A DNA stretch of 64,000 bases, taken from positions 68,961-132,960 of the forward strand of contig JAPXLB010000003.1 of assembly GCA_033809755.1 (NCBI GenBank), read 5' to 3'. The number at the start of each line of letters is the position of its first letter. Position 1 is the first letter of the stretch. The stretch is from Lentimicrobiaceae bacterium (lineage in GTDB: Bacteria; Bacteroidota; Bacteroidia; Bacteroidales; UBA4417). A program made the position numbers and the translations under genes. Under the pieces are notes generated by a model. That model ran no database searches. It was given only the letters and a program-made list of their open reading frames with translations, and was not told the origin of the DNA. Shown here piece by piece: positions 1,287-50,309 of the stretch.

Positions 1287-3212
1287 ATGGCACATCCTTT
1301 AGACATACTTAAACAATATTGGGGCTACGACAGTTTTAGAGAGAAACAATTAGAAATAATTGACTCTGTGCTTGCCGGCAACGATACTTTGGCTTTGCTT
1401 CCAACCGGTGGCGGAAAATCTATTTGTTTTCAAGTTCCGGCTCTTATGATGCAAGGTGTTTGTGTTGTTGTTACGCCTCTTATTGCTCTGATGATCGACC
1501 AGGTTAATAATTTAAGGAAACGAAATATTTCGGCTTATGCTATTCATTCGGGACTTAACTATCGCGAAATTGAAAACATCATGTTTTTGTGTAATTCGGG
1601 AGAAGTGAAATTCCTGTATCTGTCGCCAGAACGTTTGGTATCGGAGAAATTTTTATCGGTTTTTAAACAAACAAATGTGACTCTCATCGCTGTTGATGAA
1701 GCTCATTGTATTTCAGAATGGGGTTACGACTTCCGTCCGCCATATCTTAAAATTGCAGATATTCGTCCTTTGTTTCCCGAAGCTCCTGTTATTGCACTCA
1801 CAGCTACTGCAGTTCCTGAAATTGCCGATGATATACAGAAAAAATTACTCTTTAAAAAGAGCAATGTTTTCGTAAAAAGCTTTGTCAGGACTAACTTATC
1901 ATACATTGTTAGAAAAGTTGAAGACAAATATGCTAAAATTGTGCGAATTTGCAATTCTATTAAAGGAACCGGAATAGTTTACGTTAGAAACAGAAGACTT
2001 ACCGTTGAAATTTCTAAATATTTGAACCTAAATAACATTAAAGCCGACTATTACCACGCCGGCTTGAGCACAGACGAACGCAACAGAAAACAAGACGAAT
2101 GGTATAATAACAAAACTCGTGTTATGGTCAGCACCAACGCTTTTGGCATGGGAATTGACAAATCAGACGTTAGGTTTGTTATACACTTCGATATTCCCGA
2201 AAACATTGAAGCATACTATCAAGAAGCCGGTAGAGCCGGCAGAGACGAGAAAAAAGCCTATGCGGTTATATTATATAACAACGAAGATATTGCAAACAGT
2301 ATCAGACTTGTAGAACAATCGTGGCCCAGCATTGATATTATAAAGAATGTATATCAAAAAATTTGCGAATATACTCAAGTAGCTGTCGATACAGAAGTCT
2401 TTGGCTCATTTGATTTCGATTTGGGATTGTTTTGCGAAAAGTATAAACTAAAACCCATAAACGTTTTTAGCGCCGTTAAAATTCTCGAAAGAGAAGGTTA
2501 TATTGCAACTAACGAACCATGGAATAGTTCGTCAAAGCTGCTATTTACCGTCAGCAAAGAAGAGCTATTCGGCTATCAGGAAGCCGACGCCAAAATGGAA
2601 AAACTAATTAAAACAATTTTGCGAATGTACGGTGGTGTGTTTTCTTCATTTGTAAATATCGATGAAAACAAAATTGCGCGAGCTGTCAATATCGACAGAC
2701 CCATAGTTGACAAAATGCTTAAAAAACTTGACACAGACGGAATTATATCGTACCTACCCAAAAAAACAAAGAATCAGCTGTTTTTTACTTCACGAAGAAT
2801 AAACTCAAAGGATATAAACTTAAGCCGCGAATACTACTTCAACAGAAAACAAAATGCAATAGAGAAAAACAAGGCTATGGTTTACTATTTGCAATCGGAA
2901 ACCTGCAGAAGTATGTATTTAGTTTCGTATTTTGGCGAAAAAAAGGCAAAGCCTTGCGGTACTTGCGATTACTGTTTATCAAAAAAAAGAGATAAACAAA
3001 AGGAAAAGGAAATAAGTAAAGAAATTAAAACCAGACTCATAAAATTGCTGAAAAATCAGGAATTGAGTGTGAGAGAAGTGGTAGGTGAAATAAAAGAATA
3101 CTCCGAAGTTGATATACTAAACACAATACAATCGCTGATTGATAAGGGGATATTAATCTCGGATATGAATATCATCAAATACAACAAAAACAAAAAAGCC
3201 CCACGAAAGTAG
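1287..3212 (+). CDS. recQ: RecQ-family ATP-dependent DNA helicase
   Basis: FREKQLEII, LLPTGGGKS (motif I), DEAHCISEWGYDFRP (DEAH box), TNAFGMGIDKSDVRFVIH, YYQEAGRAGRD. Confidence 0.9.
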   Translation: MAHPLDILKQYWGYDSFREKQLEIIDSVLAGNDTLALLPTGGGKSICFQVPALMMQGVCVVVTPLIALMIDQVNNLRKRNISAYAIHSGLNYREIENIMFLCNSGEVKFLYLSPERLVSEKFLSVFKQTNVTLIAVDEAHCISEWGYDFRPPYLKIADIRPLFPEAPVIALTATAVPEIADDIQKKLLFKKSNVFVKSFVRTNLSYIVRKVEDKYAKIVRICNSIKGTGIVYVRNRRLTVEISKYLNLNNIKADYYHAGLSTDERNRKQDEWYNNKTRVMVSTNAFGMGIDKSDVRFVIHFDIPENIEAYYQEAGRAGRDEKKAYAVILYNNEDIANSIRLVEQSWPSIDIIKNVYQKICEYTQVAVDTEVFGSFDFDLGLFCEKYKLKPINVFSAVKILEREGYIATNEPWNSSSKLLFTVSKEELFGYQEADAKMEKLIKTILRMYGGVFSSFVNIDENKIARAVNIDRPIVDKMLKKLDTDGIISYLPKKTKNQLFFTSRRINSKDINLSREYYFNRKQNAIEKNKAMVYYLQSETCRSMYLVSYFGEKKAKPCGTCDYCLSKKRDKQKEKEISKEIKTRLIKLLKNQELSVREVVGEIKEYSEVDILNTIQSLIDKGILISDMNIIKYNKNKKAPRK

Positions 3213-3238
3213 GGCTTTTAGTAATTAAGTAAAATAAA

Positions 3239-3511
3239 TTACTTAACTGCTTTTTGTAGTTCAGAACCTGGTTTGAATTTTACTACTTTCTTAGCAGCAA
3301 TTTTAATTTCTTTACCAGTTTGAGGATTGCGTCCTTTACGAGCAGCTCTTTTAGCTACGCTAAAGCTACCCCAACCTACTAAAGATACGCGTTCACCTTT
3401 TTTTAACGCTTTTTTTGTTACTTCCATGAAAGCGTCTAAAGCACGTCTGGTATCAACTTTTGTTAAACCAGCTTCTGCAGCCATTGCATCAATTAATTCT
3501 GATTTGTTCAT
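3239..3511 (-). CDS. hup: HU-family DNA-binding protein
   Basis: 90 aa. MNKSELIDAMA...GERVSLVGWGSFSV..RAARKGRNPQTG is the canonical HU/IHF signature. Confidence 0.95.
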   Translation of the reverse strand: MNKSELIDAMAAEAGLTKVDTRRALDAFMEVTKKALKKGERVSLVGWGSFSVAKRAARKGRNPQTGKEIKIAAKKVVKFKPGSELQKAVK

Positions 3512-3678
3512 TTTTTTGGGTATTAAGTTAATAAATAATATAACAACGCAAAAGTAATACTATTTATTTGTAATGCAACCGTTTATAAACAAATTTTTTA
3601 CAAAATGTTAATAAATAGGGGTTTTTGTTAATAAAATAGCCATAAAACCTAGATAAAACTACTATTTTGGGAATATTT

Positions 3679-4647
3679 TTATTCAAAAACTAAAGATTTT
3701 ACACTTTTTCCTCTCAAAAATTCTTCCACTTTCATCCTTTTTCTTCCCTCAAGTTGCATTTCTTCTATGAAAATCCAGCCATTCGAAACCATTATTTTAA
3801 TGTAATTAACATTATCGGTAACCAAATTACCTAAAATAAAATTGTCATGATTTTCCCTCTCAAACTTCACTTTATAAATTTTTGCCGAATAAATCTTATC
3901 GTCGTTGATTAACATAAAGTGAGTAAAGGCTGCCGGATAAGGTGATAATCCTCTAACAAGATTAAAAATGCTCTCACCGTCCTTGCTCCAATCAATTAAG
4001 CAATCGTTTTTAAATATTTTTGGAGCAAGTTTCAACTCACCTTCTACAGACATATCGTTTTGCTTAGTGCAAACATAATTCCCACTAACTATCTTTTCAA
4101 TAGTTTCTAACATTAATTTTTGCCCAAACGGAACAAGTTTATCATGAAGTTCGCCTGCGGTTTCATCGTCGCCAATGGGAACCTCTACATAATCGATGAT
4201 ATTTCCTTCATCAATTTTTTCGTTTATAAAAAAAGTTGTAAGCCCTGTACGACTTTCACCATTAATTACAACCCAATTAATCGGAGCAGCTCCCCTGAAT
4301 TGAGGCAATACAGAAGCGTGTAAATTAATTGTTCCGTATTTGGGAATTTTCCACACTGATTCGGGCAACATTCGAAAAGCAACAACGACAAACAAATTTG
4401 CGTCTAATTGCCTAATTCTATCAATAAAATCGGGTGAAGATAGGTTTTGTGGCTGTAATATAGGCAAGTCAAGCTGTAAAGCAGCTTTTTTAACCGGCGA
4501 TTCGTTTAACTTTAAACCACGCCCAGCAGGCTTATCCGGAACGGTAACTACAGCTGCTATGTGGTGTCCGGCTTCGTAAATCGCAAAAAGTTGCGGGACT
4601 GCAAAATCTGCAGTCCCCATAAAAATTATCTTAAGTTTATCTTGCAA
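3679..4647 (-). CDS. fmt: Methionyl-tRNA formyltransferase
   Basis: 322 aa. IIFMGTADFAVP, NLHASVLPQFRGAAPINW and a C-terminal Fmt domain. Confidence 0.9.
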   Translation of the reverse strand: MQDKLKIIFMGTADFAVPQLFAIYEAGHHIAAVVTVPDKPAGRGLKLNESPVKKAALQLDLPILQPQNLSSPDFIDRIRQLDANLFVVVAFRMLPESVWKIPKYGTINLHASVLPQFRGAAPINWVVINGESRTGLTTFFINEKIDEGNIIDYVEVPIGDDETAGELHDKLVPFGQKLMLETIEKIVSGNYVCTKQNDMSVEGELKLAPKIFKNDCLIDWSKDGESIFNLVRGLSPYPAAFTHFMLINDDKIYSAKIYKVKFERENHDNFILGNLVTDNVNYIKIMVSNGWIFIEEMQLEGRKRMKVEEFLRGKSVKSLVFE

Positions 4648-12547: not shown

Positions 12548-14287
12548 ATGAAAGATAAAAAAAATATAAAGAAAAATGTAATTACTAAGCTACTGATTGG
12601 TATTCTGTTTATTATTGTAATAAATATTCTGTCGAGTTTTATTCATTTCAGAATAGATATAACTTCAGAAAAGAGATACACCTTAGCTCCTGCTACAAAA
12701 AAAATCCTTAAGGATTTAGACGACATTGTATATTTTAAAATTTACTTAGATGGCGATTTTCCCCCAGGGTTTATCAGATTGCAAAAAGAAACAAGAGAAA
12801 TGCTAAATCAGTTTAGAGCATACTCTAATAAAATACAATTTGAGTTTACCGATCCGTCCAAAATAAGTAATCAAAAACAGCGAGAAGATTTTTTTAAGCA
12901 GATTATCAGCGAAGGAGTTAATCCTACAGAATTGCAGGTAAAAGACAAAGACGGATATTCCAGAAAATTGATTTTCCCGGGTGGAGTGGCAAATTATAAA
13001 GATAAAAAAGTCGCAATTCAACTTGTTGAAAATCAGAGTGGTAAAAACCCAGAACTAGCTTTAAACAGTGCTGTTGAAGCTCTTGAATATAATCTTGCTA
13101 ACAGTTTGCGTAAACTCATTGGTAAATCTAAGAAAAAAATAGCTTTTGTTGAAGGACATGGCGAACTTCCACTGCTATACAGACAAGGTGCAATTGCCGA
13201 TTTGTCGGAGTTTTACGTTGTTGAAAAAGTAGAAATTGATGGCAAGTTTTCATCTCTGACAAAAAGGCATCCCGTTGATGAAGACTCGACTAATTATTTT
13301 GTAAAAAACAACTACGATGCTATTATCATTGCCAAGCCTACCGAAATGTTCAGTCGTGATGAAAAAGACAAGTTTATAATAGACCAATACGTTATGAACG
13401 GCGGAAAAGTGTTGTGGCTTATTGATGGCGTAAGAGCAAGCATGGACAGCCTGCAAAGCAAAAGTCAGACCGTTGGTATGAGCAACGACCTTAATATCGA
13501 CGATATGCTTTTTAACTACGGCGTCAGAATAAATCATAACTTAGTTACCGACCTAAATGCACTTCCAATTCCTGTAGTAGTCGACAATAGCGGAACACAA
13601 AGAATGATACCATGGGTGTTTATGCCTGTTTTGGTTCCAACCGCCGAACATCCAATTGTTAGAAATGTAAATTTAATCAGAACCGAATTTATAAGCAGTA
13701 TTGATACTATTGAAGTTCCCGATTTGAAGAAAACCATACTGCTAAGCACTTCGCAATATAGCAAAGCATACAATGCTCCTGTTATGGTTAAGCTCAGCTA
13801 TCTGTACGAGCAACCCGACGTAAAACAATATAATCAGAGCAATTTGCCGGTTTCGGTGTTGGTTGAAGGAAAATTCACATCACTGTTCAGGAACAGAATA
13901 CCGCAGGAAATAGCAACGGCTCCTTCTATTAAGTTTTTACCTGAAAGTGAAAATACAGCCATGATTTTTGTTGCCGACGGCGATATTATTAAAAATCAGG
14001 TTCAATTCACATCCGGAAGTCCTGTTGCTCTGCCATTAGGTTACGATAAGTACACTCAAACCAAATTCGGAAACAGTGACTTTATCCTAAACTGCATTGA
14101 CTACCTATGCGACGATAGTCGTTTGTTCGAGCTTCGCTCGCGCAAAATTGAACTACGACTTTTAGATACACAAAAAACTGAAAATAGATTAAAATGGCAA
14201 GTTATTAATTTGGCTTTACCTGTTGCTATTGTGATATTAGCTGCTATTGTTCAGTATTTTGCAAGAAAGAAAAAATATTCTTATTAA
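12548..14287 (+). CDS. gldG: Gliding-associated ABC transporter auxiliary protein GldG
   Basis: 579 aa with N- and C-terminal TM anchors. ITSEKRYTLAPATKKIL motif and the gldF-gldG-DUF4340 gene order. Confidence 0.8.
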   Translation: MKDKKNIKKNVITKLLIGILFIIVINILSSFIHFRIDITSEKRYTLAPATKKILKDLDDIVYFKIYLDGDFPPGFIRLQKETREMLNQFRAYSNKIQFEFTDPSKISNQKQREDFFKQIISEGVNPTELQVKDKDGYSRKLIFPGGVANYKDKKVAIQLVENQSGKNPELALNSAVEALEYNLANSLRKLIGKSKKKIAFVEGHGELPLLYRQGAIADLSEFYVVEKVEIDGKFSSLTKRHPVDEDSTNYFVKNNYDAIIIAKPTEMFSRDEKDKFIIDQYVMNGGKVLWLIDGVRASMDSLQSKSQTVGMSNDLNIDDMLFNYGVRINHNLVTDLNALPIPVVVDNSGTQRMIPWVFMPVLVPTAEHPIVRNVNLIRTEFISSIDTIEVPDLKKTILLSTSQYSKAYNAPVMVKLSYLYEQPDVKQYNQSNLPVSVLVEGKFTSLFRNRIPQEIATAPSIKFLPESENTAMIFVADGDIIKNQVQFTSGSPVALPLGYDKYTQTKFGNSDFILNCIDYLCDDSRLFELRSRKIELRLLDTQKTENRLKWQVINLALPVAIVILAAIVQYFARKKKYSY

Positions 14288-15553: not shown

Positions 15554-15627
15554 GGTCCCGTAGCTCAGCTGGATAGAGCAACAGCCTTCTAAGCTGTGGG
15601 TCATAGGTTCGAATCCTATCGGGATCG
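15554..15627 (+). tRNA. tRNA-Arg (anticodon TCT)
   Basis: Cloverleaf read by hand: acceptor GGTCCCG/CGGGATC, D arm GCTC..GAGC, anticodon stem ACAGC/GCTGT with loop CTTCTAA, T arm ATAGG-TTCGAAT-CCTAT. CCA is not encoded. Confidence 0.9.
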
Positions 15628-15654
15628 CAACTTTTTCATAACTTTAATGTTTTA

Positions 15655-15687
15655 AACAAAAAAACTGCTGAAATGGCAGTTTTTTTG
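15655..15687. terminator. Bidirectional intrinsic terminator between the tRNA and the paralogue array
   Basis: A-tract, stem AACTGC/GCAGTT with a 7-nt loop, then a T-tract (aaaaaaactgctgaaatggcagttttttt). Confidence 0.7.
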
Positions 15688-15708
15688 TTGTATAATGGCT
15701 TTTTAATT

Positions 15709-16116
15709 TCACTTAGTTTTATAACCTGTGTTCATAAACTTACCAATTAACGTGGTTTCCTTTATCTCGCCATTCGGCATTATTTTAACTTTTATGCCAT
15801 TGCGTATTATAAATACTTCTTGCCTATAAGGTGTTATAACTCCAACTATACCCTTGCGAGTTTCGTGCGGGTTTAATATCTCGGGTTCATCGCTACTTTT
15901 CGTTTTTTTAGTATATGCTATTCCACAATAATTGTTTTCCACTATTTCACCGGATTTAACCTTAAGTGTAAAAACAGCTGACAAAAGTAAAAATAAAGCT
16001 ATTAATATTGTCAAGTTATCAAAATGTACGCTTATTTTACCTAACCATAAACTTATTACAAATAGTACTAAAAAAAATACAGAATACGCATAATTGTCTA
16101 TGTGTTTAAAATTCAT
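15709..16116 (-). CDS. Two-TM protein of unknown family, paralogue 4 of 4
   Basis: MNFKHIDNY start, two hydrophobic helices, conserved C-terminal domain SGEIVENNY..PEILNPHETRKGI.GV.TPY. Its start overlaps the upstream stop (ATGA). Confidence 0.75.
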   Translation of the reverse strand: MNFKHIDNYAYSVFFLVLFVISLWLGKISVHFDNLTILIALFLLLSAVFTLKVKSGEIVENNYCGIAYTKKTKSSDEPEILNPHETRKGIVGVITPYRQEVFIIRNGIKVKIMPNGEIKETTLIGKFMNTGYKTK

Positions 16117-16541
16117 ATCTTAATTTTTTTAGTGTAACCTATATTTGCTATTTTACCAATAAATGTAGTTTCTTTCACTTTACCCTCTGGCGTTATTATA
16201 GCCTTTATTCCATTGCGAATTTTAAAAACATCAGGACTATACGGAGTTTTTACTCCATCTATACCTTTGCGAGTTTCATGCGGATTTAATATTTCAGGCT
16301 GACAGCTTCCGTCTTCTTTTTTCGTATGTCCTACACCTGAATAATTGTTTTCTACTATTTCGCCGGATTGAGTTTCAGCAGTGTATATAAGTAACAACAT
16401 AGCTATAAATCCTAAGATTGCACTTACATATAAGGTTGTTTTACTGTCAGAAGGAACGAGAAAATATTTCAGTATTAAAATTCCTGAAATAGCCAATAAT
16501 GGCGCTGCTTTTGCATAATTATCAATGTGTTTAAACTTCAT
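16113..16541 (-). CDS. Two-TM protein of unknown family, paralogue 3 of 4
   Basis: Same architecture as its neighbours. 4-nt ATGA overlaps at both ends. Confidence 0.8.
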   Translation of the reverse strand: MKFKHIDNYAKAAPLLAISGILILKYFLVPSDSKTTLYVSAILGFIAMLLLIYTAETQSGEIVENNYSGVGHTKKEDGSCQPEILNPHETRKGIDGVKTPYSPDVFKIRNGIKAIITPEGKVKETTFIGKIANIGYTKKIKI

Positions 16542-16963
16542 ATTTTAAATTTGTTAGTGTAACCTACATTTGCTATTTTACCTAACAAAGTCGTTTCTTC
16601 TACTTTGCCGGTTGGTGTTATTCTCGCTTTTATACCATTACAGATTTTAAATACCTTCTCTGTATTATATGGTGTTTTTACTCCGTCTATACCTTTGCGG
16701 GTTTCGTGTGGCTTCAATATTTCAGGCTGGCAGCTTCCGTCTTCTTTTTTTGTGTAGCCTGTACCCAAGTAATTATTTTCCACGATTTCGCCTGATTTAA
16801 ACCAGTAAGTATATCCCATCAATATTAAAGCAGTTACACATAAAGCCATCCCCACAGAGAAGTACGGCTTAACTCCTAATAGACCAGGAGCAAACATTAT
16901 AATTACTCCTAAAGCTCCTATTATTAGACCTTTTGTATAATTATCAATATGTTTAAACTTCAT
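16538..16963 (-). CDS. Two-TM protein of unknown family, paralogue 2 of 4
   Basis: Same architecture. The last 64 residues are identical to paralogue 1, but the N-terminal TM region is unrelated in sequence. Confidence 0.8.
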   Translation of the reverse strand: MKFKHIDNYTKGLIIGALGVIIMFAPGLLGVKPYFSVGMALCVTALILMGYTYWFKSGEIVENNYLGTGYTKKEDGSCQPEILKPHETRKGIDGVKTPYNTEKVFKICNGIKARITPTGKVEETTLLGKIANVGYTNKFKI

Positions 16964-17379
16964 ATTTTAAATTTGTTAGTGTAACCTACGTTTGCTATTT
17001 TACCTAACAAAGTCGTTTCTTCTACTTTGCCGGTTGGTGTTATTCTCGCTTTTATACCATTACAGATTTTAAATACTTTCTCTGTATTATATGGTGTTTT
17101 TACTCCGTCTATACCTTTACGGGTTTCGTGTGGTTTTAATATTTCGGGTTGGCAGTTTCCGTCTTCTTTTTTCGTATATCCTATACCGGAATAATTATTT
17201 TCTACAATTTCACCGGATTGAAAAAGATAAGCGTATAAAGCAATGATTATAATCAATACAGGTATAATCATAAACGAATACATAAAAACCTTACTTCTAT
17301 TTAGAACTACTATATTACAAAGCCATAATAGACCTAAAATAAATGCTATTGAGTAATTATCAATGTGTTTTAATTTCAT
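16960..17379 (-). CDS. Two-TM protein of unknown family, paralogue 1 of 4
   Basis: MKLKHIDNY start, two TM helices and the conserved C-terminal domain. Confidence 0.8.
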   Translation of the reverse strand: MKLKHIDNYSIAFILGLLWLCNIVVLNRSKVFMYSFMIIPVLIIIIALYAYLFQSGEIVENNYSGIGYTKKEDGNCQPEILKPHETRKGIDGVKTPYNTEKVFKICNGIKARITPTGKVEETTLLGKIANVGYTNKFKI

Positions 17380-17385
17380 GTCTTT

Positions 17386-17469
17386 TTATTTTAACAATCT
17401 GATTATTATAATTGTACCTGCTATTATTAGTACTATTAACGTTAAATTTTTGGTTTTATTATTTTTCAT
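17386..17469 (-). CDS. Candidate 27-codon hydrophobic mini-ORF (MKNNKTKNLTLIVLIIAGTIIIIRLLK)
   Basis: Translated by hand; it is below the ORF-track cutoff. It has one TM-like core flanked by basic residues and ends 6 nt before the first paralogue's ATG. The region is AT-rich, so it could be a chance ORF. Confidence 0.3.
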   Translation of the reverse strand: MKNNKTKNLTLIVLIIAGTIIIIRLLK

Positions 17470-17507
17470 TTTATTTGCTTGTTTATAAATATTTATTTTT
17501 TTTGCAT

Positions 17508-17578
17508 AAACTCTTGTAAGGTTTATGGCGTGTTAAGGCGCCGCTTGAAACAAAGCTATACCTTACAGGGGTTTTTTT
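17508..17578 (+). ncRNA. Candidate structured small RNA, copy 1 (three-stem fold plus U-tract)
   Basis: Outer stem 17511-17522/17560-17571. Inner hairpins GGCG..CGCC and GCTT-gaaaca-AAGC. A run of 7 T at 17572-17578. Promoter-like TTTG (17474-17477) lies 19 nt before TTTTTTTG (17497-17504). Confidence 0.5.
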
Positions 17579-17693
17579 ATTTCATTATGGATAAACAGTA
17601 CTGTATCTTTTGTCCGCTTTTTCTACTCCCTATTGTTAATTTTACGTTTCCTAAATATATTTGGTTATTTATAAAAAATTATTAATTTTGCAT

Positions 17694-17764
17694 AAACTCT
17701 TATGTGGGTTATGGAGTGTTATGGCTCTGCTTGAAACAAAGCTACCCCACATAAGAGTTTTTTT
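17694..17764 (+). ncRNA. Candidate structured small RNA, copy 2
   Basis: Outer stem 17697-17708/17746-17757 has a different sequence from copy 1 but keeps the pairing. The inner hairpin is GGAG..CTCT in place of GGCG..CGCC. A run of 7 T at 17758-17764. TTTG (17660-17663) lies 19 nt before TAATTTTG (17683-17690). Confidence 0.55.
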
Positions 17765-17851
17765 ATTTCAGAAAATTACTCTAAATAAAAAACCCAACTC
17801 TTCTCAGTGTCGGGCTTGTTTTTAATGTTGTTGTCAGATAAATATAAATTC

Positions 17852-17988
17852 GGCTATTAGCTGTTGGCTTTTTTGTGATTGGTGGTCAGTGGTGGTTGAT
17901 GAGTGTCCTGCACAATTCGACCATTCAACACGTAATATTAACCACGTAACACGTAACACGTAACACGCACCCCGCACCACGCAACTCC
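17852..17988. repeat. Mosaic heptamer block: TTAGC/TTGGC and GGTGATT-type modules, then (ACGTAAC)n/CCGCACC modules
   Basis: ggctattagctgttggc..gtgattggtggtcagtggtggttgatgagtg ... cacgtaacacgtaacacgtaacacgcaccccgcaccacgcaac. Confidence 0.8.
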
Positions 17989-18045
17989 AACTTCAAGGTT
18001 TTATCGGACAATAATGATTTTATAAGTTTTTAGAAAAAAAAACGC

Positions 18046-19713
18046 TTAACTCAATCCTTCAATATTTCCATCAACTATTTTAATGTTTTTAGCTTGTGGT
18101 TCCTTGGGTAGTCCGGGCATACGCATCATTTCGCCGGCAATAGCAACAATAAACTCCGAACCGTTGTTAATTACAATATCGTTGATTTTAAAAGTAAAAT
18201 CCTTTGCTACGCCGTATTGTTTCGGGTCGGCTGAGAACGAATATTGCGTTTTGGCAATACATACAGGCATTTTTTCTAATTCGGTACCCTTTATTTTTTG
18301 AAGTATTTTGTATGCTTTTTCGTTGAAAACAACATTTTTTGCTCCGTAAATATTAAGGGCAATTTTATTAACCTTAGTCTCAATAGAGTCGTCATCATCG
18401 TAAGTATAAATTAAATCTTTCGATGGGTTGTTTTCAATAATGTCAACCACCAATTTAGCCATATCAATAGCTCCTTCGCCACCTTTGGCAAATCCTTCGT
18501 TTATGGCAAAAGGCACGTTTTGGTTGCGACAATAATCTTCAATAAGTTTTAGTTCTTCTTCGGTATCGGTATGGAATTTATTTAGTGCAACAAGTACACT
18601 TTGTCCGAAATCTTTAAGGTTATCTAAGTGCTTTTGTAAGTTTTCGAATCCTTTTTTAAGACCTTCAATGTTTTCCTTTTCAATTTCGTTTAAAGGAACG
18701 TCACCGTGCATTTTGAGTCCCTGAGCAGTAACAACAACAACAGTTAGTTTAGGTTTTAGATTATTTTTACGACATTTAATATTAAAGAATTTTTCTGCAC
18801 CTAAATCAGCTCCGAAGCCTGCTTCTGTAATTACGTAGTCGCCATAAGTCATAGCCATTTTTGTAGCTAAAACAGAATTGCAACCATGCGCAATATTGGC
18901 AAAAGGTCCGCCATGAACAAAAGCCGGTGTGTTTTCGGTAGTTTGAACCAAGTTGGGCGAAATGGCATCTTTCATCAAGACTGTTATAGCTCCTTGAATT
19001 TCCAAGTCTTTTACCATAAACGGTTCTCCATCAAAAGTATATCCTAGCAATATATCGCCAATACGTCTTTCCAAATCAACTTCATCAACTGCAAGGCATA
19101 AAATAGCCATAAGCTCCGAAGCGGCTGTTATATCAAATCCAGACTCCATTGGAACGCCATTGGAAGGTCCGTTTAAACCTGTAACCACATAGCGTAAATT
19201 GCGGTCGTTTACATCGAGAACTCTTTTCCAAACTACTTCTTTTAAAGCCTTATCTCCCGATCTATTTCGCCAAATATAATTGTCAAGCACAGCCGAAATA
19301 GTGTTGTGAGCCGAAGTTACTGCATGAAAATCGCCTGTAAAATGCAAGTTTATGTTTTCCATTGGCAAAACTTGCGAATAACCGCCACCAGCTGCTCCGC
19401 CTTTCATTCCAAATACTGGTCCCAACGAAGGTTCACGCAAGGTTACTATGGCGTTTTTGCCTATTCTATTAAGTCCTAAAGCCAAACTTATTGACATAGT
19501 TGTTTTTCCAATACCTTTCTTGGTTGGCGTTATGGCAGTAACTAATATTAAGTTGCTTTTGGCTACTTTTTCATCGTCTATAAGTCGTACCGGCAATTTA
19601 GCCATATACGGTCCGTAATTTTGTACATCGTCTTTTGGAACACCTATTTGATGAGCAACATTTTTAATTTTTTCAAGTTTTGTCTCTCTAGCTATCTGTA
19701 TGTCTGTCTTCAT
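18046..19713 (-). CDS. fhs: Formate--tetrahydrofolate ligase
   Basis: 555 aa. [38 protein letters not shown] and [14 protein letters not shown]. Confidence 0.95.
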
Positions 19714-46039: not shown

Positions 46040-46197
46040 AATTAGTAATATTAGTATGTTAGTACAAAAGTATAAAATTGTTTTGCAAAAGTACAAAATA
46101 TCTATATATCTATATGTTTTTATATTTAGATTTGAAACTTTTTAAAATTTTTCCAATTATCAAACTTTGCAGGTTATAAAAATGTTATATATTTGCA

Positions 46198-46355
46198 AGC
46201 GAAAATTGGTTCTACAAAAGATTAAAAGGGAATGCCGTGAGAATCGGCAACAGTACCCGCTGCTGTGAGTTTTAAAAGCATTTTTATTAAGCCACTGTAT
46301 TTTTATGGGAAGGCAAAAATGTACGAAACAAGTCAGAAGACCTACCATTTTCAAA
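46198..46355 (+). promoter_or_regulatory. Cobalamin (B12) riboswitch
   Basis: AAGGGAATGCCGTGAGAATCGGCA, CCCGCTGCTGTGA, GCCACTG, GGGAAGGC and the B12 box AGTCAGAAGACCTACC (46331-46346). P1 is aaaattggt/accatttt. Promoter TTTG 46166-46169 and TATATTTG 46188-46195. Confidence 0.85.
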
Positions 46356-46487
46356 TTACATAATACGACTTCCGGGATTAGAGGTCTGAGATGTGTCGAT
46401 ATTTCAGTATATTACCTCCATCCATTTCGTATTTTGTTATAAATAGATATTGAAGTATTTATTAATGAACAATTAAAATATAACAAA

Positions 46488-49400
46488 ATGAGAAAATTTA
46501 ATCTGTTGCTATTAGCATTAATTGCTATTATTCAAACAAGTGTAGCTCAAACAAAATTGAGCGGAGAGTACATAATTAGCCAAAACACAGCACATAATCC
46601 TGATTATACAAGTTTTCAGGCAGCGATTGACGATGCTACAACCAAAGGTGTACAAGGTATAGTTACCTTTAAGGTTATGCCTGGCACTTATGAAGAGTTT
46701 GTATCTATTACGACTATTAACGACCTAAGTGCTGAAAATCAGATTGTTTTTAAAGGTATAGCTCCCGACAACCAACAAGTTGTTTTAACCGGAAATGCAG
46801 GATATTTAGAAAAACCAATAATTAAATTTTCGGCGGTAAGGTACATTACTTTTAAAAACATGAAAATAGTTACCACATCAAGTAATTATGGGAATTTAGT
46901 TGTGTTTGAAAATAAAGTTAATAACTTGACCTTCGACAGTATATATTTTCATGGTATTGATGTTACTGCTAATACATTTAACAACGACAAACATATTATT
47001 TTCGATAATAGCAAAAGTGCCGATTACACCGATTCGGATTTACATTTTTTAAATTCGCAATTTGTAAATGGTAACATGGCTTTTTACTTACAAGGCAATA
47101 ACGCTATAACTCCGCCCGACAGCAACTTAGTAATTGAAAACTGCACGTTTACAAACCAGTACACAAAAACTATTTATGCCACTTATCAAAAAAACGCTTC
47201 CATCAAAAATAATAAAATCAGCAACAACGAAGATATAAAAAACGGATTTCAAGCTATTGATTTGTTTCGGGTTTACGACAATAGCATAATTGAAAACAAT
47301 ATAATCAACATTGATTTTTCGACAAAAGACGGAACAGGTATTGAAGTTCGTCCTGCTATTGGCTCTGCCACAGAACCTGTTATTATAAGAAATAATATGG
47401 TTAAAATTACTTCCAATTCCAACCTTAATTATGCTTTCAAACTTTCTAACAGTAGTAGCGAAAATGTAATTCTGGCTAACAATACTGCACTTATGCAAGG
47501 CACAGGAAGCGGTGCTGTTGTTTACATTGATGCCGTCATCCCAAACTTTAAAATGTATAATAATCTGTTTGTAAGCGAAAATAGTGGATATATTGTCAGG
47601 CATCAGAAAACGGATATAAGTAATTTTACTTCCAATTTTAACAGATGTCTTTTCAACGGTAACTATTACGGCAGAATCGGCTCAAACGAATATGCTACTT
47701 TACAGGAATGGCAAACGGCTTCCGGTAACGATAATAACACAGAAATTATAAGTACAAATCCTTTTATTTCGAATACCAATCTGCATATAAGTAATAGCAC
47801 AAACCTAACTGTTGCAAATCCTTTGAGCTACGTAACTCACGATATCGACAACGAACTGCGTTCGACAACGACACCGTGTGCAGGTGCTGACGAAATCGTT
47901 TCGGGTGGAAATCTTCCACCATACGTTGCAAACCCTATCAGCGACGTTATTTTTGAAAATGCAAACGACAGCACAATTATTTCGTTAAACAATACTTTTG
48001 CCGACCCCGACGACCCAGATGAGGATATTGTAATAAGTATTGCGTCGAATTCCAATCCGCAATTGGTTGAAGCTACGTTGCTTGCAGGAAACAGAGATTT
48101 GAAAGTCAAACGAATAAGTCCTGATGCAGGCACTTCAACTATAGTTTTATCGGCAAATAGCAATGGACAAACTGTTGAAACTTCTTTTAACGTAATATGC
48201 AATGTTCCGGCAGTTGCTCCCGTTATTGCCAATCAGGTTGACCCTGTGAATTTTACCACGTATCCCGAAACTAAAACCATTAATCTTACCAATGCTTTTG
48301 CAGTTCCGGGCAACCCCAATGCCAACATGCAACTGACAATTCAAAGTTCTACTAACACTCATGTTCAGTCTTCTCTTTCTGCAAATATATTGACCTTACA
48401 GAGAATCAATCCTACAGCTTTCACTAATCACGAAGTTGTAATACGTTGTACGTACAACAGCTTATTTGTTGATATGACAATACTAATGTCGGGCACTGAA
48501 GCTACTGCAGCACATGGTACAGCAACTTTTGAAGATATTACACTGAACAGTAATGGCACATGGACGCCGCCACAAACAGGTGATAATGAAATGATTAGCG
48601 ACACATGGAGCTTTTATAACCATTATCATAATTCGTATTGGGGTGGATTTACCGCTTCAAACAGGACAGATACGACATTAAGCGGAATGGCTGCTCAATA
48701 TACTGCTATTGCAGGCGAAGGCGTAAACGAATCAGAGCAATATGCAGTCGGCTTTACAATGGGTTATCCTGCTGATGTAAAACCCGTTGATAATAATCCG
48801 GACGTTGTTTCGGGCTGCTACGTAACCAACAATTTATGGGCATACAGAGCAATTTTGGAAGGTGATGGTTATGGTCCTGCTTTCGGTGGAAACTCCGGAA
48901 ATGACCCCGACTACTTCAGAGTTTGGGCTGTTGGAAAAAGAGAAAATAACACATATACCGACACATTGTACTACTACCTTGCCGACTACCGTTCGCCAAA
49001 CAACTCGGAAGATTATGTTGTTAACACTTGGGAATGGTTTGACCTTTCTACTATGGGAATTATAAAATCCATACGCTTTGGGTTGCAATCGTCAAGGAGT
49101 AATGCGTGGGGAATGACTACACCTGCTTATTTTTGCATGGACGACTTCAACGGCATCCCTCCCACTACACCAAACCAACCGCCTTACGTTGCTAACAGCA
49201 TCGACGATGTGCTATTTACAACTTATCCTTGTTACGATACATTAGACTTAACTAATACCTTTGCCGACCCCGACGATCCAAGCGACAGTATTGTTTTAAG
49301 CGTTGGTGGTAATACTAATCCGCAACTTGTTCAGGCAACTATTGATGAAAAAACGCTGTATTTGGAAAGACTTTCAAGCGAAAATGATACGGTTCTCATT

Positions 49401-50309
49401 ACCATAAATGCCGAAAGCAATGGACAATACGCCAACACGTCGTTTAATGTGTTTTGTACCGATCCGCAAAACCTTCCGCCTTATGTGTTGAATCCTATTC
49501 CTGATGTTACTTTTGAGTACTATCCCGACTACGATACATTGGATTTATCGAACACATTTGCCGACCCTGACGACCCAAGCGACAGTATTGTGTTAAGCGT
49601 TACAAATAATACAAATCCTGAGCTTGTTCAAACCATTCTGGAAGATAAAACATTGTATTTAGAACGACTTAGTGCCGAAGTAGGCGACGTGGTTATCACC
49701 ATAAATGCCAATAGTGCCGGACAAGAAGTAGCAACCGTATTTACAGTTCATTGCTTGCCTATACCCAATCCTGAGCCGTACTTGGCAAATCCGATTGAGC
49801 ACATTTACATATACGATTATCCTTTCGATACTACGTTCAGCCTGATTGGAACCGTCTCCGACCCTGATGTTTGCGACTCTCTGATAGTATATACAGTCAT
49901 AAATAACAGCTCGCCTAACGATATTGAAGCCGTGATTGACAACAATAGCAATATGACTATTTCCAGATTAAATCCCAATCATGCCGAAGTTGTTGTAACC
50001 GTCAGAGCTACCAGCAACGACCAATTTATCGATTTCGAGATTGATATCACAAACGTATTGTATGAAAACGTGTATTCGTATGATAATTCAACAGCAATAT
50101 ATCCAAATCCTACTTCAAAATACATTAAAATTGAGAGCTCGAAAGATTTTTCTGGATATATGATATTAAATTCTAATGGAAATGTTATTAAGAACAGCGT
50201 TCTTGATAATAAAATAATAGATGTCAGTAATTTAATGCCTGGAAATTACATACTTATAATTATTGATAACAATAGAAAACATACAACACATAAGTTTATC
50301 AAAATATAA
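46488..50309 (+). CDS. 1273-aa secreted multidomain protein with a T9SS C-terminal sorting domain; B12-riboswitch controlled
   Basis: Signal peptide, then a beta-helix-like N-terminal third, then five ~95-aa repeats (PPYVANPI...NTFADPDDP). A central ~210-aa domain (ATFEDITL..YWGGFTASN..PAYFCMDDF, nt ~48520-49150) follows. The C-terminal IYPNPTSKYIKIE...LMPGNYILII is a Por-type secretion tail. Confidence 0.8.
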   Translation: MRKFNLLLLALIAIIQTSVAQTKLSGEYIISQNTAHNPDYTSFQAAIDDATTKGVQGIVTFKVMPGTYEEFVSITTINDLSAENQIVFKGIAPDNQQVVLTGNAGYLEKPIIKFSAVRYITFKNMKIVTTSSNYGNLVVFENKVNNLTFDSIYFHGIDVTANTFNNDKHIIFDNSKSADYTDSDLHFLNSQFVNGNMAFYLQGNNAITPPDSNLVIENCTFTNQYTKTIYATYQKNASIKNNKISNNEDIKNGFQAIDLFRVYDNSIIENNIINIDFSTKDGTGIEVRPAIGSATEPVIIRNNMVKITSNSNLNYAFKLSNSSSENVILANNTALMQGTGSGAVVYIDAVIPNFKMYNNLFVSENSGYIVRHQKTDISNFTSNFNRCLFNGNYYGRIGSNEYATLQEWQTASGNDNNTEIISTNPFISNTNLHISNSTNLTVANPLSYVTHDIDNELRSTTTPCAGADEIVSGGNLPPYVANPISDVIFENANDSTIISLNNTFADPDDPDEDIVISIASNSNPQLVEATLLAGNRDLKVKRISPDAGTSTIVLSANSNGQTVETSFNVICNVPAVAPVIANQVDPVNFTTYPETKTINLTNAFAVPGNPNANMQLTIQSSTNTHVQSSLSANILTLQRINPTAFTNHEVVIRCTYNSLFVDMTILMSGTEATAAHGTATFEDITLNSNGTWTPPQTGDNEMISDTWSFYNHYHNSYWGGFTASNRTDTTLSGMAAQYTAIAGEGVNESEQYAVGFTMGYPADVKPVDNNPDVVSGCYVTNNLWAYRAILEGDGYGPAFGGNSGNDPDYFRVWAVGKRENNTYTDTLYYYLADYRSPNNSEDYVVNTWEWFDLSTMGIIKSIRFGLQSSRSNAWGMTTPAYFCMDDFNGIPPTTPNQPPYVANSIDDVLFTTYPCYDTLDLTNTFADPDDPSDSIVLSVGGNTNPQLVQATIDEKTLYLERLSSENDTVLITINAESNGQYANTSFNVFCTDPQNLPPYVLNPIPDVTFEYYPDYDTLDLSNTFADPDDPSDSIVLSVTNNTNPELVQTILEDKTLYLERLSAEVGDVVITINANSAGQEVATVFTVHCLPIPNPEPYLANPIEHIYIYDYPFDTTFSLIGTVSDPDVCDSLIVYTVINNSSPNDIEAVIDNNSNMTISRLNPNHAEVVVTVRATSNDQFIDFEIDITNVLYENVYSYDNSTAIYPNPTSKYIKIESSKDFSGYMILNSNGNVIKNSVLDNKIIDVSNLMPGNYILIIIDNNRKHTTHKFIKI

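Follow-up and report, generated by a model that had tools for sequence, protein, structure and literature searches.

A tandem pair of candidate small non-coding RNA genes between tRNA-Arg and fhs in a Lentimicrobiaceae bacterium

Two tandem RNA units in the tRNA-Arg/fhs intergenic region

The intergenic region between a tRNA-Arg gene and the gene coding for formate-tetrahydrofolate ligase (fhs) of a Lentimicrobiaceae bacterium contains two tandem copies of a short, structured unit. The region was analysed within a stretch of 64,000 nt (contig JAPXLB010000003.1 of assembly GCA_033809755.1), referred to below as the window. The best explanation, with a probability of about 0.72, is that the two units are paralogues of a stand-alone gene for a small non-coding RNA (sRNA). 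They represent a credible candidate for a new, lineage-restricted sRNA family, so far found in two sister species and matching no Rfam family.

Direct reading of the sequence placed unit 1 at positions 17506-17584 and unit 2 at positions 17692-17770, both on the plus strand. The units are offset by 186 nt, are in identical register without any indels, and differ in 15 of their 79 columns, 13 of which are located in stems. The flank TTTTGCATAAACTCTT occurs exactly at 17500 and 17686, and the flank TTTTTTTATTTCA is likewise exact in both units. An earlier note on this DNA had described two tandem, structured units of ~70 nt with shared flanks, each ended by a terminator; all the items that it quoted, both flanks included, were present where it had placed them. 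Within the units, the RNA of copy 1 (17508-17578, plus strand) would measure ~65-71 nt, with a predicted 5' end and a 3' end inside the U run. The RNA of copy 2 (17694-17764, plus strand) is the conservative paralogue, and that of copy 1 the diverged one. A repeat family (D4) spans 17446-17584 and 17632-17770. The inter-unit spacer (17585-17659, plus strand) lacks an equivalent in the sister species; its final ~28 nt (17632-17659) are part of the duplicated upstream segment and poorly conserved. With filters off, a search of the window by a covariance model trained on both copies retrieved these two alone (107 bits each). The next-best score in the window was 16 bits, the reverse strands of the copies themselves excepted.

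Secondary structure and covariation

Both units fold into one three-way junction, for which the minimum free energy (MFE) structure and the centroid agree. The outer stem P1 has 13 bp, a figure that rises to 15 bp in copy 2 if AAA/UUU is included, and seven U follow straight after it in both copies. Junction strand J1/2 consists of 4 nt (UUAU) and J3/1 of 3 nt; P2 has 5 bp and a 6-nt loop, and P3, with 4 bp and the loop GAAACA, abuts P2 directly. On the plus strand, copy 1 comprises P1 (17510-17522/17560-17572), P2 (17527-17531/17538-17542), P3 (17543-17546/17553-17556), and the U run (17572-17578). The corresponding elements of copy 2 are P1 (17694-17708/17746-17760), P2 (17713-17717/17724-17728), P3 (17729-17732/17739-17742), and the U run (17758-17764). 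The arms of P1 read CTCTTGTAAGGT/ACCTTACAGGGG in copy 1 and CTCTTATGTGGG/CCCACATAAGAG in copy 2, and those of P2 read GGCG(U)/(G)CGCC and GGAG(U)/(G)CUCU, respectively. P3 (GCTT-GAAACA-AAGC) is invariant between the copies.

The MFE amounted to -28.4 kcal/mol for copy 1 and -29.7 kcal/mol for copy 2, with z-scores of -4.7 and -6.0 relative to dinucleotide shuffles, none of which (0/200) folded as well as the real units. The copy of the sister species folds at -29.7 kcal/mol (z = -5.1). RNAalifold, applied to the four distinct sequences with no structure supplied, returned the identical junction with five covarying pairs, and a competing structure was not seen in the fold ensemble. All 22 base pairs are standard in each copy; in five of them both partners differ between the copies, and in three a single partner differs, via G.U. 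As a control, sliding of the 3' partners by 1-3 columns left 41-55% of them paired, with no double changes. Similarly, when 15 random substitutions were simulated (200,000 trials), zero broken pairs were obtained in a fraction of 1.1e-4 of the trials. The structure is specific to the plus strand, as the G.U and U.G pairs turn into A.C on the minus strand and the reverse complement of copy 1 folds at just -17.2 kcal/mol. Hence, the shared three-stem fold, the compensatory changes in P1 and P2, the invariant P3, the seven T at the end of each unit, and the preference for the plus strand, all of which had been proposed in the earlier note, were recovered.

Sequence constraint within the RNA is found in an apical module, consisting of J1/2 (UUAU), a P2 frame (G-G-N-G-U / G-C-N-C-Y), the P3 hairpin GCUUGAAACAAAGC, and J3/1 (UAY). 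Constraint extends to the promoter too, and the stems change only with pairing retained. The longest unpaired stretch in the RNA is 6 nt. A kissing interaction between the loops L2 and L3 (GUU/AAC) was considered and dropped, as it was retained neither in the copy of the sister species nor in the variant of a second metagenome-assembled genome (MAG) of the same species (locus L039).

Promoters and terminator

The promoter of copy 1 (17474-17504, plus strand) consists of a -33 box TTTG (17474-17477), a 19-nt spacer, and the -7 box TTTTTTTG (17497-17504). That of copy 2 (17660-17690, plus strand) consists of TTTG (17660-17663), 19 nt, and TAATTTTG (17683-17690). Compared with the consensus for the primary sigma factor of Bacteroidota (PMC7366714), the copy 2 promoter is an exact TTTG-N17-21-TAnnTTTG. 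The -7 box of copy 1 in the window (TTTTTTTG) has one mismatch, the conserved A being lost; in L039 this box is TATTTTTG, an exact TAnnTTTG, and the box of the sister species is likewise TATTTTTG. The proposed Bacteroides-type sigma-A geometry is thus exact for copy 2 and near-exact for copy 1. The motif TTTG-N17-21-TAnnTTTG has 14 exact matches in the window, versus 5.0 +/- 2.4 expected, and several of the others are found a short distance ahead of genes or of a cobalamin riboswitch. This enrichment and placement ahead of genes indicate that the organism uses this promoter type. In Bacteroides thetaiotaomicron, 76% of the intergenic sRNA candidates carry this promoter consensus, and the high-confidence class of sRNAs is characterized by an own transcription start site and an intrinsic terminator (PMC7366714). 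At the sequence level, a Rho-independent terminator, namely the 13-15 bp of P1 followed by U7 or U8, is present in all four sequences.

Elsewhere in the window, the cobalamin riboswitch (46166-46363; 113 bits) is directly preceded by an exact TTTG-N-TAnnTTTG promoter and is located upstream of an open reading frame (ORF) of 1273 aa (46488-50309).

Orthologue in a sister species and purifying selection

The same locus is carried by three NCBI MAGs and one JGI contig, and the neighbouring proteins (fhs, DUF4340) were used as synteny anchors to reach relatives. The spacer of L039, from the MAG of the same species, is 99% identical to that of the window; the differences include the base in the -7 box, a C-to-A change in L3 of copy 2, and one extra T in the U run. 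The identity of fhs homologues drops from 100% to 94% (Lentimicrobiaceae bacterium MAG GCA_028697555.1) and then to 76%, and that of DUF4340 homologues from 91% to 50%. These steep drops indicate an isolated lineage with one accessible sister species. In the latter, the fhs contig ends 54 nt beyond the gene, and the DUF4340 contig spans tRNA-Arg into the 3' end of fhs.

The sister species (GCA_028697555.1) contains one copy of the RNA (L054, 11333-11411; 98 bits). It is located on the same strand in the space that separates tRNA-Arg from the fhs 3' end, ~85 nt past the tRNA-Arg terminator, and the gap between DUF4340 and fhs is ~590 nt, compared with 2.5 kb in the window. The sister sequence is identical to copy 2 at 75 of 79 positions (95%), the differences being A5G, whereby an A-U pair becomes G-U, and three positions in loop L2. 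With copy 1 it shares 61 of 79 positions; every stem change among these 18 differences preserves pairing, and two U.G pairs occur in P1 of copy 1. Four-fold degenerate sites are 68% identical between the window and the sister species, a value obtained for fhs (223 sites) and for DUF4340 (110 sites) alike. At this neutral rate, the probability of at most four differences between copy 2 and the sister copy is 5e-9. Similarly, over the 38 nt that lead from the -33 box up to the RNA, the copy 1 promoter of the window differs from the sister sequence by a single base (P = 8e-6). Upstream of the -33 box, as well as over most of the stretch from the fhs terminator hairpin to the fhs stop codon, the window and the sister species could not be aligned, so that the conserved block consists of exactly the promoter, the RNA, and the terminator. 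The single-copy orthologue of the sister species is under clear purifying selection.

In two further loci with differing synteny (L048 and L073), the RNA was not found. L048 contains an fhs homologue (1973-4210, called as a 745-aa protein) that scores 1147 bits, nearly as high as that of the sister species, in a wholly different neighbourhood with an Asp-Al_Ex transporter gene upstream and an SHMT gene downstream and without the RNA. A third lineage was represented by seven Logan contigs (L049-L053 and L056-L057; from at least six runs), all of which end at the same points, namely 345 nt beyond fhs and 63 nt beyond DUF4340. The RNA spacer falls between these ends and is unassembled; the breaks may reflect strain heterogeneity or repeats at the locus. 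Finally, the gldG-like ABC_transp_aux gene of the window (12548-14287) is 89.5% identical to its sister counterpart at four-fold degenerate sites, compared with 68% for DUF4340 and fhs, which suggests that the two species recently recombined at this gene.

Searches for known families and further copies

A search of the whole window with Rfam 15 (4227 models) at gathering thresholds returned just a tRNA and the cobalamin riboswitch, and left the RNA units unmatched. The models included Bacteroidales-1, Bacteroides-1/2, Flavo-1, FopS/GibS, tetrahydrofolate (THF), purine, hammerhead, Y RNA, and 6S. When the region 16500-19000 was searched at E-values up to 10, the sole match was mir-365, a chance match on the wrong strand (16.7 bits versus a threshold of 62). 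The statement in the earlier note that no known RNA family could be recognized therefore holds at gathering and permissive thresholds alike.

The covariance-model search that had also been proposed there was run on the window and related loci, and yielded the two copies of the window plus the one orthologue of the sister species. Beyond this orthologue, no further copies were found in ~150 kb of related loci. A scan of viral contigs with the P3 16-mer gave 28 matches, all unrelated by context, and a scan of JGI metagenome contigs with GTGTTA-N4-10-GCTTGAAACAAAGC gave seven chance matches. The pattern GTGT-N2-5-GG-N4-GCTTGAAANAAAGC, loosened after the sister copy had been seen, matched 15 times among 185,579 species genomes, in unrelated taxa and without confirmation by the covariance model in any case, and had no matches in viral contigs. 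A blastn search against phage and plasmid records produced AT-rich chance matches only. As both source species are absent from these collections, the scans indicate that the RNA is not widespread, rather than that it is unique.

Genomic context and locus history

On the plus strand, no coding genes follow the RNA units. The next two genes are located on the minus strand, namely fhs (18046-19713) and, after it, a gene coding for a polysaccharide biosynthesis protein. A terminator-like hairpin followed by a T run (CCCGAC...GTTGGG TTTTTT; 17787-17825, minus strand), conserved in the sister species, was missed by a simple scan and was read from the sequence directly. It probably ends the convergent fhs transcript short of the RNA genes. 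The 3' flank of fhs further contains a heptamer array (CACGTAA)n followed by the C-rich CACCCCGCACCACGC (17927-17985). This array has one extra unit in another MAG of the same species, and its place is taken by other short C-rich repeats in the sister species and the third lineage.

Upstream of the RNA units lie tRNA-Arg(UCU) (15554-15628, plus strand) and its terminator hairpin (inverted repeat I3; 15655-15689, plus strand). They are followed by an insertion of ~1.8 kb relative to the sister species (15690-17465, with genes on the minus strand at 15709-17379), which stands in place of ~45 nt of the stretch that, in the sister species, separates the tRNA terminator from the RNA promoter. This islet consists of four tandem paralogous membrane-protein genes with overlapping start and stop codons (135-142 aa). 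The encoded proteins have a variable N-terminal half, which resembles two membrane-spanning segments (assessed by eye), and a conserved C-terminal domain of ~85 aa. The family comprises five clusters among 5.8 billion proteins and has no Pfam, NCBIfam, PADLOC or PHROGs assignment. Its remote homologues adjoin tyrosine integrases, in one case beside a tRNA-Val gene. The islet of L039 (11094-13158) contains two paralogues, an unannotated 328-aa gene, and three small helix-turn-helix (HTH) genes; this different content indicates that the islet varies between strains. The islet is thus variable and probably derived from a mobile element, and it has the look of cargo left over from an integrative element that targets tRNA genes. 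Its adjacency to the RNA is a secondary, recent accident, brought about by the ~1.8-kb insertion.

The sister copy is a mosaic with respect to the two copies of the window, its body being like copy 2 and its promoter like copy 1; its 3' flank begins like copy 1 (TTTCATTAT) and goes on like copy 2. In the simplest reading, an ancestral single unit would have been present in the tRNA-Arg/fhs spacer of this two-species Lentimicrobiaceae lineage and would have been duplicated in tandem in the species of the window. Copy 2 would then have retained the ancestral RNA body and copy 1 the ancestral promoter, the body of the latter drifting via G.U intermediates under relaxed, structure-preserving selection. 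The two U.G pairs in P1 of copy 1 look like intermediates of such compensatory change. Alternatively, the body of copy 1 may have been acquired by recombination from an unsampled allele.

Proposed mode of action

The features described above are compatible with the following sequence of events. The primary sigma factor of Bacteroidota would start transcription a few bases past the -7 box, near A17508-17510 for copy 1 and A17694-17696 for copy 2, and the transcript would fold co-transcriptionally into the closed three-way junction. Once the 3' arm of P1 has paired and the seven U have been transcribed, P1 would serve as the stem of an intrinsic terminator. The product would be an RNA of 65-71 nt with both ends locked within one long P1 helix, and for this reason it should be stable. 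It would act via its folded apical module, either bound by a protein or through loop-to-loop contact with another RNA. This type of recognition is favoured, albeit with low confidence, over classical linear seed pairing of the GibS/FopS kind, because the RNA has no single-stranded stretch longer than 6 nt.

Several points weigh against an sRNA gene. The transcript, along with its ends and abundance, is a prediction from sequence, and the analysis yielded neither a target nor a partner. The comparison comprises only four distinct sequences from two species, and all five double compensatory changes lie on the branch of copy 1, which corresponds to few independent events. A terminator stem that encloses a branched insert of 33 nt is unusual. 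Furthermore, copy 1 may be weakly expressed, down-regulated or decaying in the strain of the window, because its -7 box has lost the conserved A.

Alternative explanations

A first alternative, doubtful but worth stating, is that the closed junction is the RNA subunit or the specific ligand of an unknown protein, forming a new small ribonucleoprotein or acting as a sequestering RNA in Lentimicrobiaceae. The two copies, which differ mainly in P1, would in that case have diverged in partner specificity or stability after duplication. If so, the RNA would represent a new class of structured RNA instead of another base-pairing sRNA.

It is improbable that the units are mere strong terminators or insulators between tRNA-Arg, the islet, and the convergent fhs gene, with transcripts that are functionless by-products. 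P1 followed by U7 is indeed a terminator by sequence, and the region is a convergence zone, but tRNA-Arg and fhs each possess a conserved terminator hairpin of their own. Moreover, a terminator alone would have no need of a dedicated, conserved promoter or of a P2-P3 insert with 95% conservation, compared with 68% at neutral sites.

Regulation of the divergent four-gene paralogue operon by the RNAs, or a function as its antitoxins (through leader pairing or in a type I/III-like manner), is very unlikely. The earlier note had placed the RNA pair directly upstream of, and divergent from, this operon. The position is correct, the promoter of copy 1 being ~95 nt from the first paralogue start codon, and both the RNA duplication and the operon are restricted to the species of the window. 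The operon as functional context or target was not supported, since the sister species has the RNA, strongly constrained, without a single paralogue gene. Conversely, the RNA was not found near the remote paralogue loci L043 and L046, so that RNA without paralogues and paralogues without RNA both occur, at odds with the linkage of an RNA antitoxin. The proposed target prediction against the operon leader did not single it out either, as its duplex energies ranked 47th and 34th of the 53 start regions of the window; these energies, computed with Duplexfold without accessibility, are crude. Stretches complementary to the P1 arms and to P3/L3 occur in the window at chance level only.

Little credence is likewise given to a palindromic repeat acting at the DNA level, such as a miniature inverted-repeat transposable element (MITE), a REP-like element or a hairpin-forming site for a protein or recombinase, in which the compensatory changes result from selection on a DNA hairpin or from templated repair. 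P1 is an inverted repeat of 13-15 bp, perfect in copy 2 (inverted repeat I2), and the locus adjoins a tRNA gene as well as an inserted islet whose genes have relatives beside integrases. Yet there are just two copies in 64 kb, tandem rather than dispersed, with none elsewhere in the ~150 kb of related loci and only chance matches across the three public collections; in both species, it is the same spacer that holds the unit. The scenario in which the units are the ends of a common MITE, raised in the earlier note as a possible refutation, thus finds no support in the sequences searched. A target-site duplication flanking the unit was not seen, five G.U-type pairs are strand-specific, P2 and P3 within the palindrome covary or are conserved, and the promoter and the T run are conserved too.

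A conditional terminator controlled by a ligand or a protein, the read-through of which would run antisense into the convergent fhs gene as a cis-acting switch, is hardly probable. The P1-closed three-way junction is of the kind found in small aptamers, and the RNA is convergent with fhs in both species. However, switching is hard to picture for a P1 of 13-15 bp, at -28 to -30 kcal/mol and without a rival fold, the fhs terminator hairpin sits between the RNA and fhs, and no riboswitch family matched, THF classes included. A cis-regulatory leader is not indicated either, as no coding gene follows the RNA on the plus strand. Lastly, a micropeptide encoded by the 7-codon ORF AUG GAG UGU UAU/AUC GGC UCU GCU UGA, open in copy 2 and the sister copy, can practically be dismissed, as copy 1 stops after three codons, the ORF, its AUG included, is hidden within J1/2-P2-P3, and substitutions follow base pairs rather than codons.

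Comparison with known systems

As a candidate sRNA gene, the unit resembles the canonical intergenic sRNAs of Bacteroidota, such as the high-confidence class of B. thetaiotaomicron, GibS, and FopS. Like these, it is stand-alone and intergenic, with a promoter of the sigma-ABfr type (TTTG / TAnnTTTG), a Rho-independent terminator at the 3' end, an AT-rich sequence, and a narrow range. Indeed, 27 of B. thetaiotaomicron's 49 intergenic sRNAs in the high-confidence class are strain-specific (PMC7366714), indicating that a narrow distribution is normal for this class. FopS also occurs as paralogous copies, and its consensus structure has been deposited in Rfam according to its authors (PMC11697453). 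In GibS and FopS, a simple terminator hairpin comes after a long single-stranded 5' seed (PMC11697453, PMC7366714). In contrast, the RNA of the window consists of one closed three-way junction, the outer helix of which is the terminator, without a free 5' region. P1 begins 0-3 nt from the predicted 5' end, which leaves no room for such a 5' seed, and no sequence or Rfam similarity to GibS or FopS was found.

With respect to layout, the pair resembles OmrA/OmrB of enterobacteria and PrrF1/PrrF2 of Pseudomonas, in which two adjacent sRNA paralogues share a strand and each have a promoter and a terminator of their own. In both cases, the paralogues are tandem, partly identical, and partly diverged. 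OmrA/OmrB and PrrF1/PrrF2 are Hfq-dependent, use linear seeds, and diverge in unpaired central regions, whereas the copies of the window diverge in helices, in a compensatory way; homology is neither claimed nor detectable. To our knowledge, Bacteroidota is a phylum without Hfq and ProQ.

Riboswitches of the purine class are three-way junctions of ~70 nt too, in which P1 closes two hairpins. The RNA of the window shares this size and general build. It differs by its short P2 and P3 (4-5 bp), the lack of a J2/3 linker, and a far longer P1, as well as by the absence of a downstream gene or expression platform and of any match to the Rfam models.

Significance

Lentimicrobiaceae are mostly represented by uncultured MAGs. 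Within the Bacteroidota, we know of few sRNAs beyond Bacteroides and Flavobacterium, and of none in Lentimicrobiaceae. The significance of the present finding is modest, as it concerns an sRNA candidate of an ordinary kind that opens or settles no major question. Nevertheless, it is rare for a prediction from genomes only to combine a promoter and a terminator with compensatory changes that distinguish paralogues and with purifying selection that can be measured between species, which makes the RNA a clean target for validation by Northern blot or RNA-seq. The pair of copies 1 and 2 provides a natural example of structure-preserving drift via G.U intermediates after duplication. In addition, its closed architecture, free of a linear seed, would add another design to the sRNAs of Bacteroidota.

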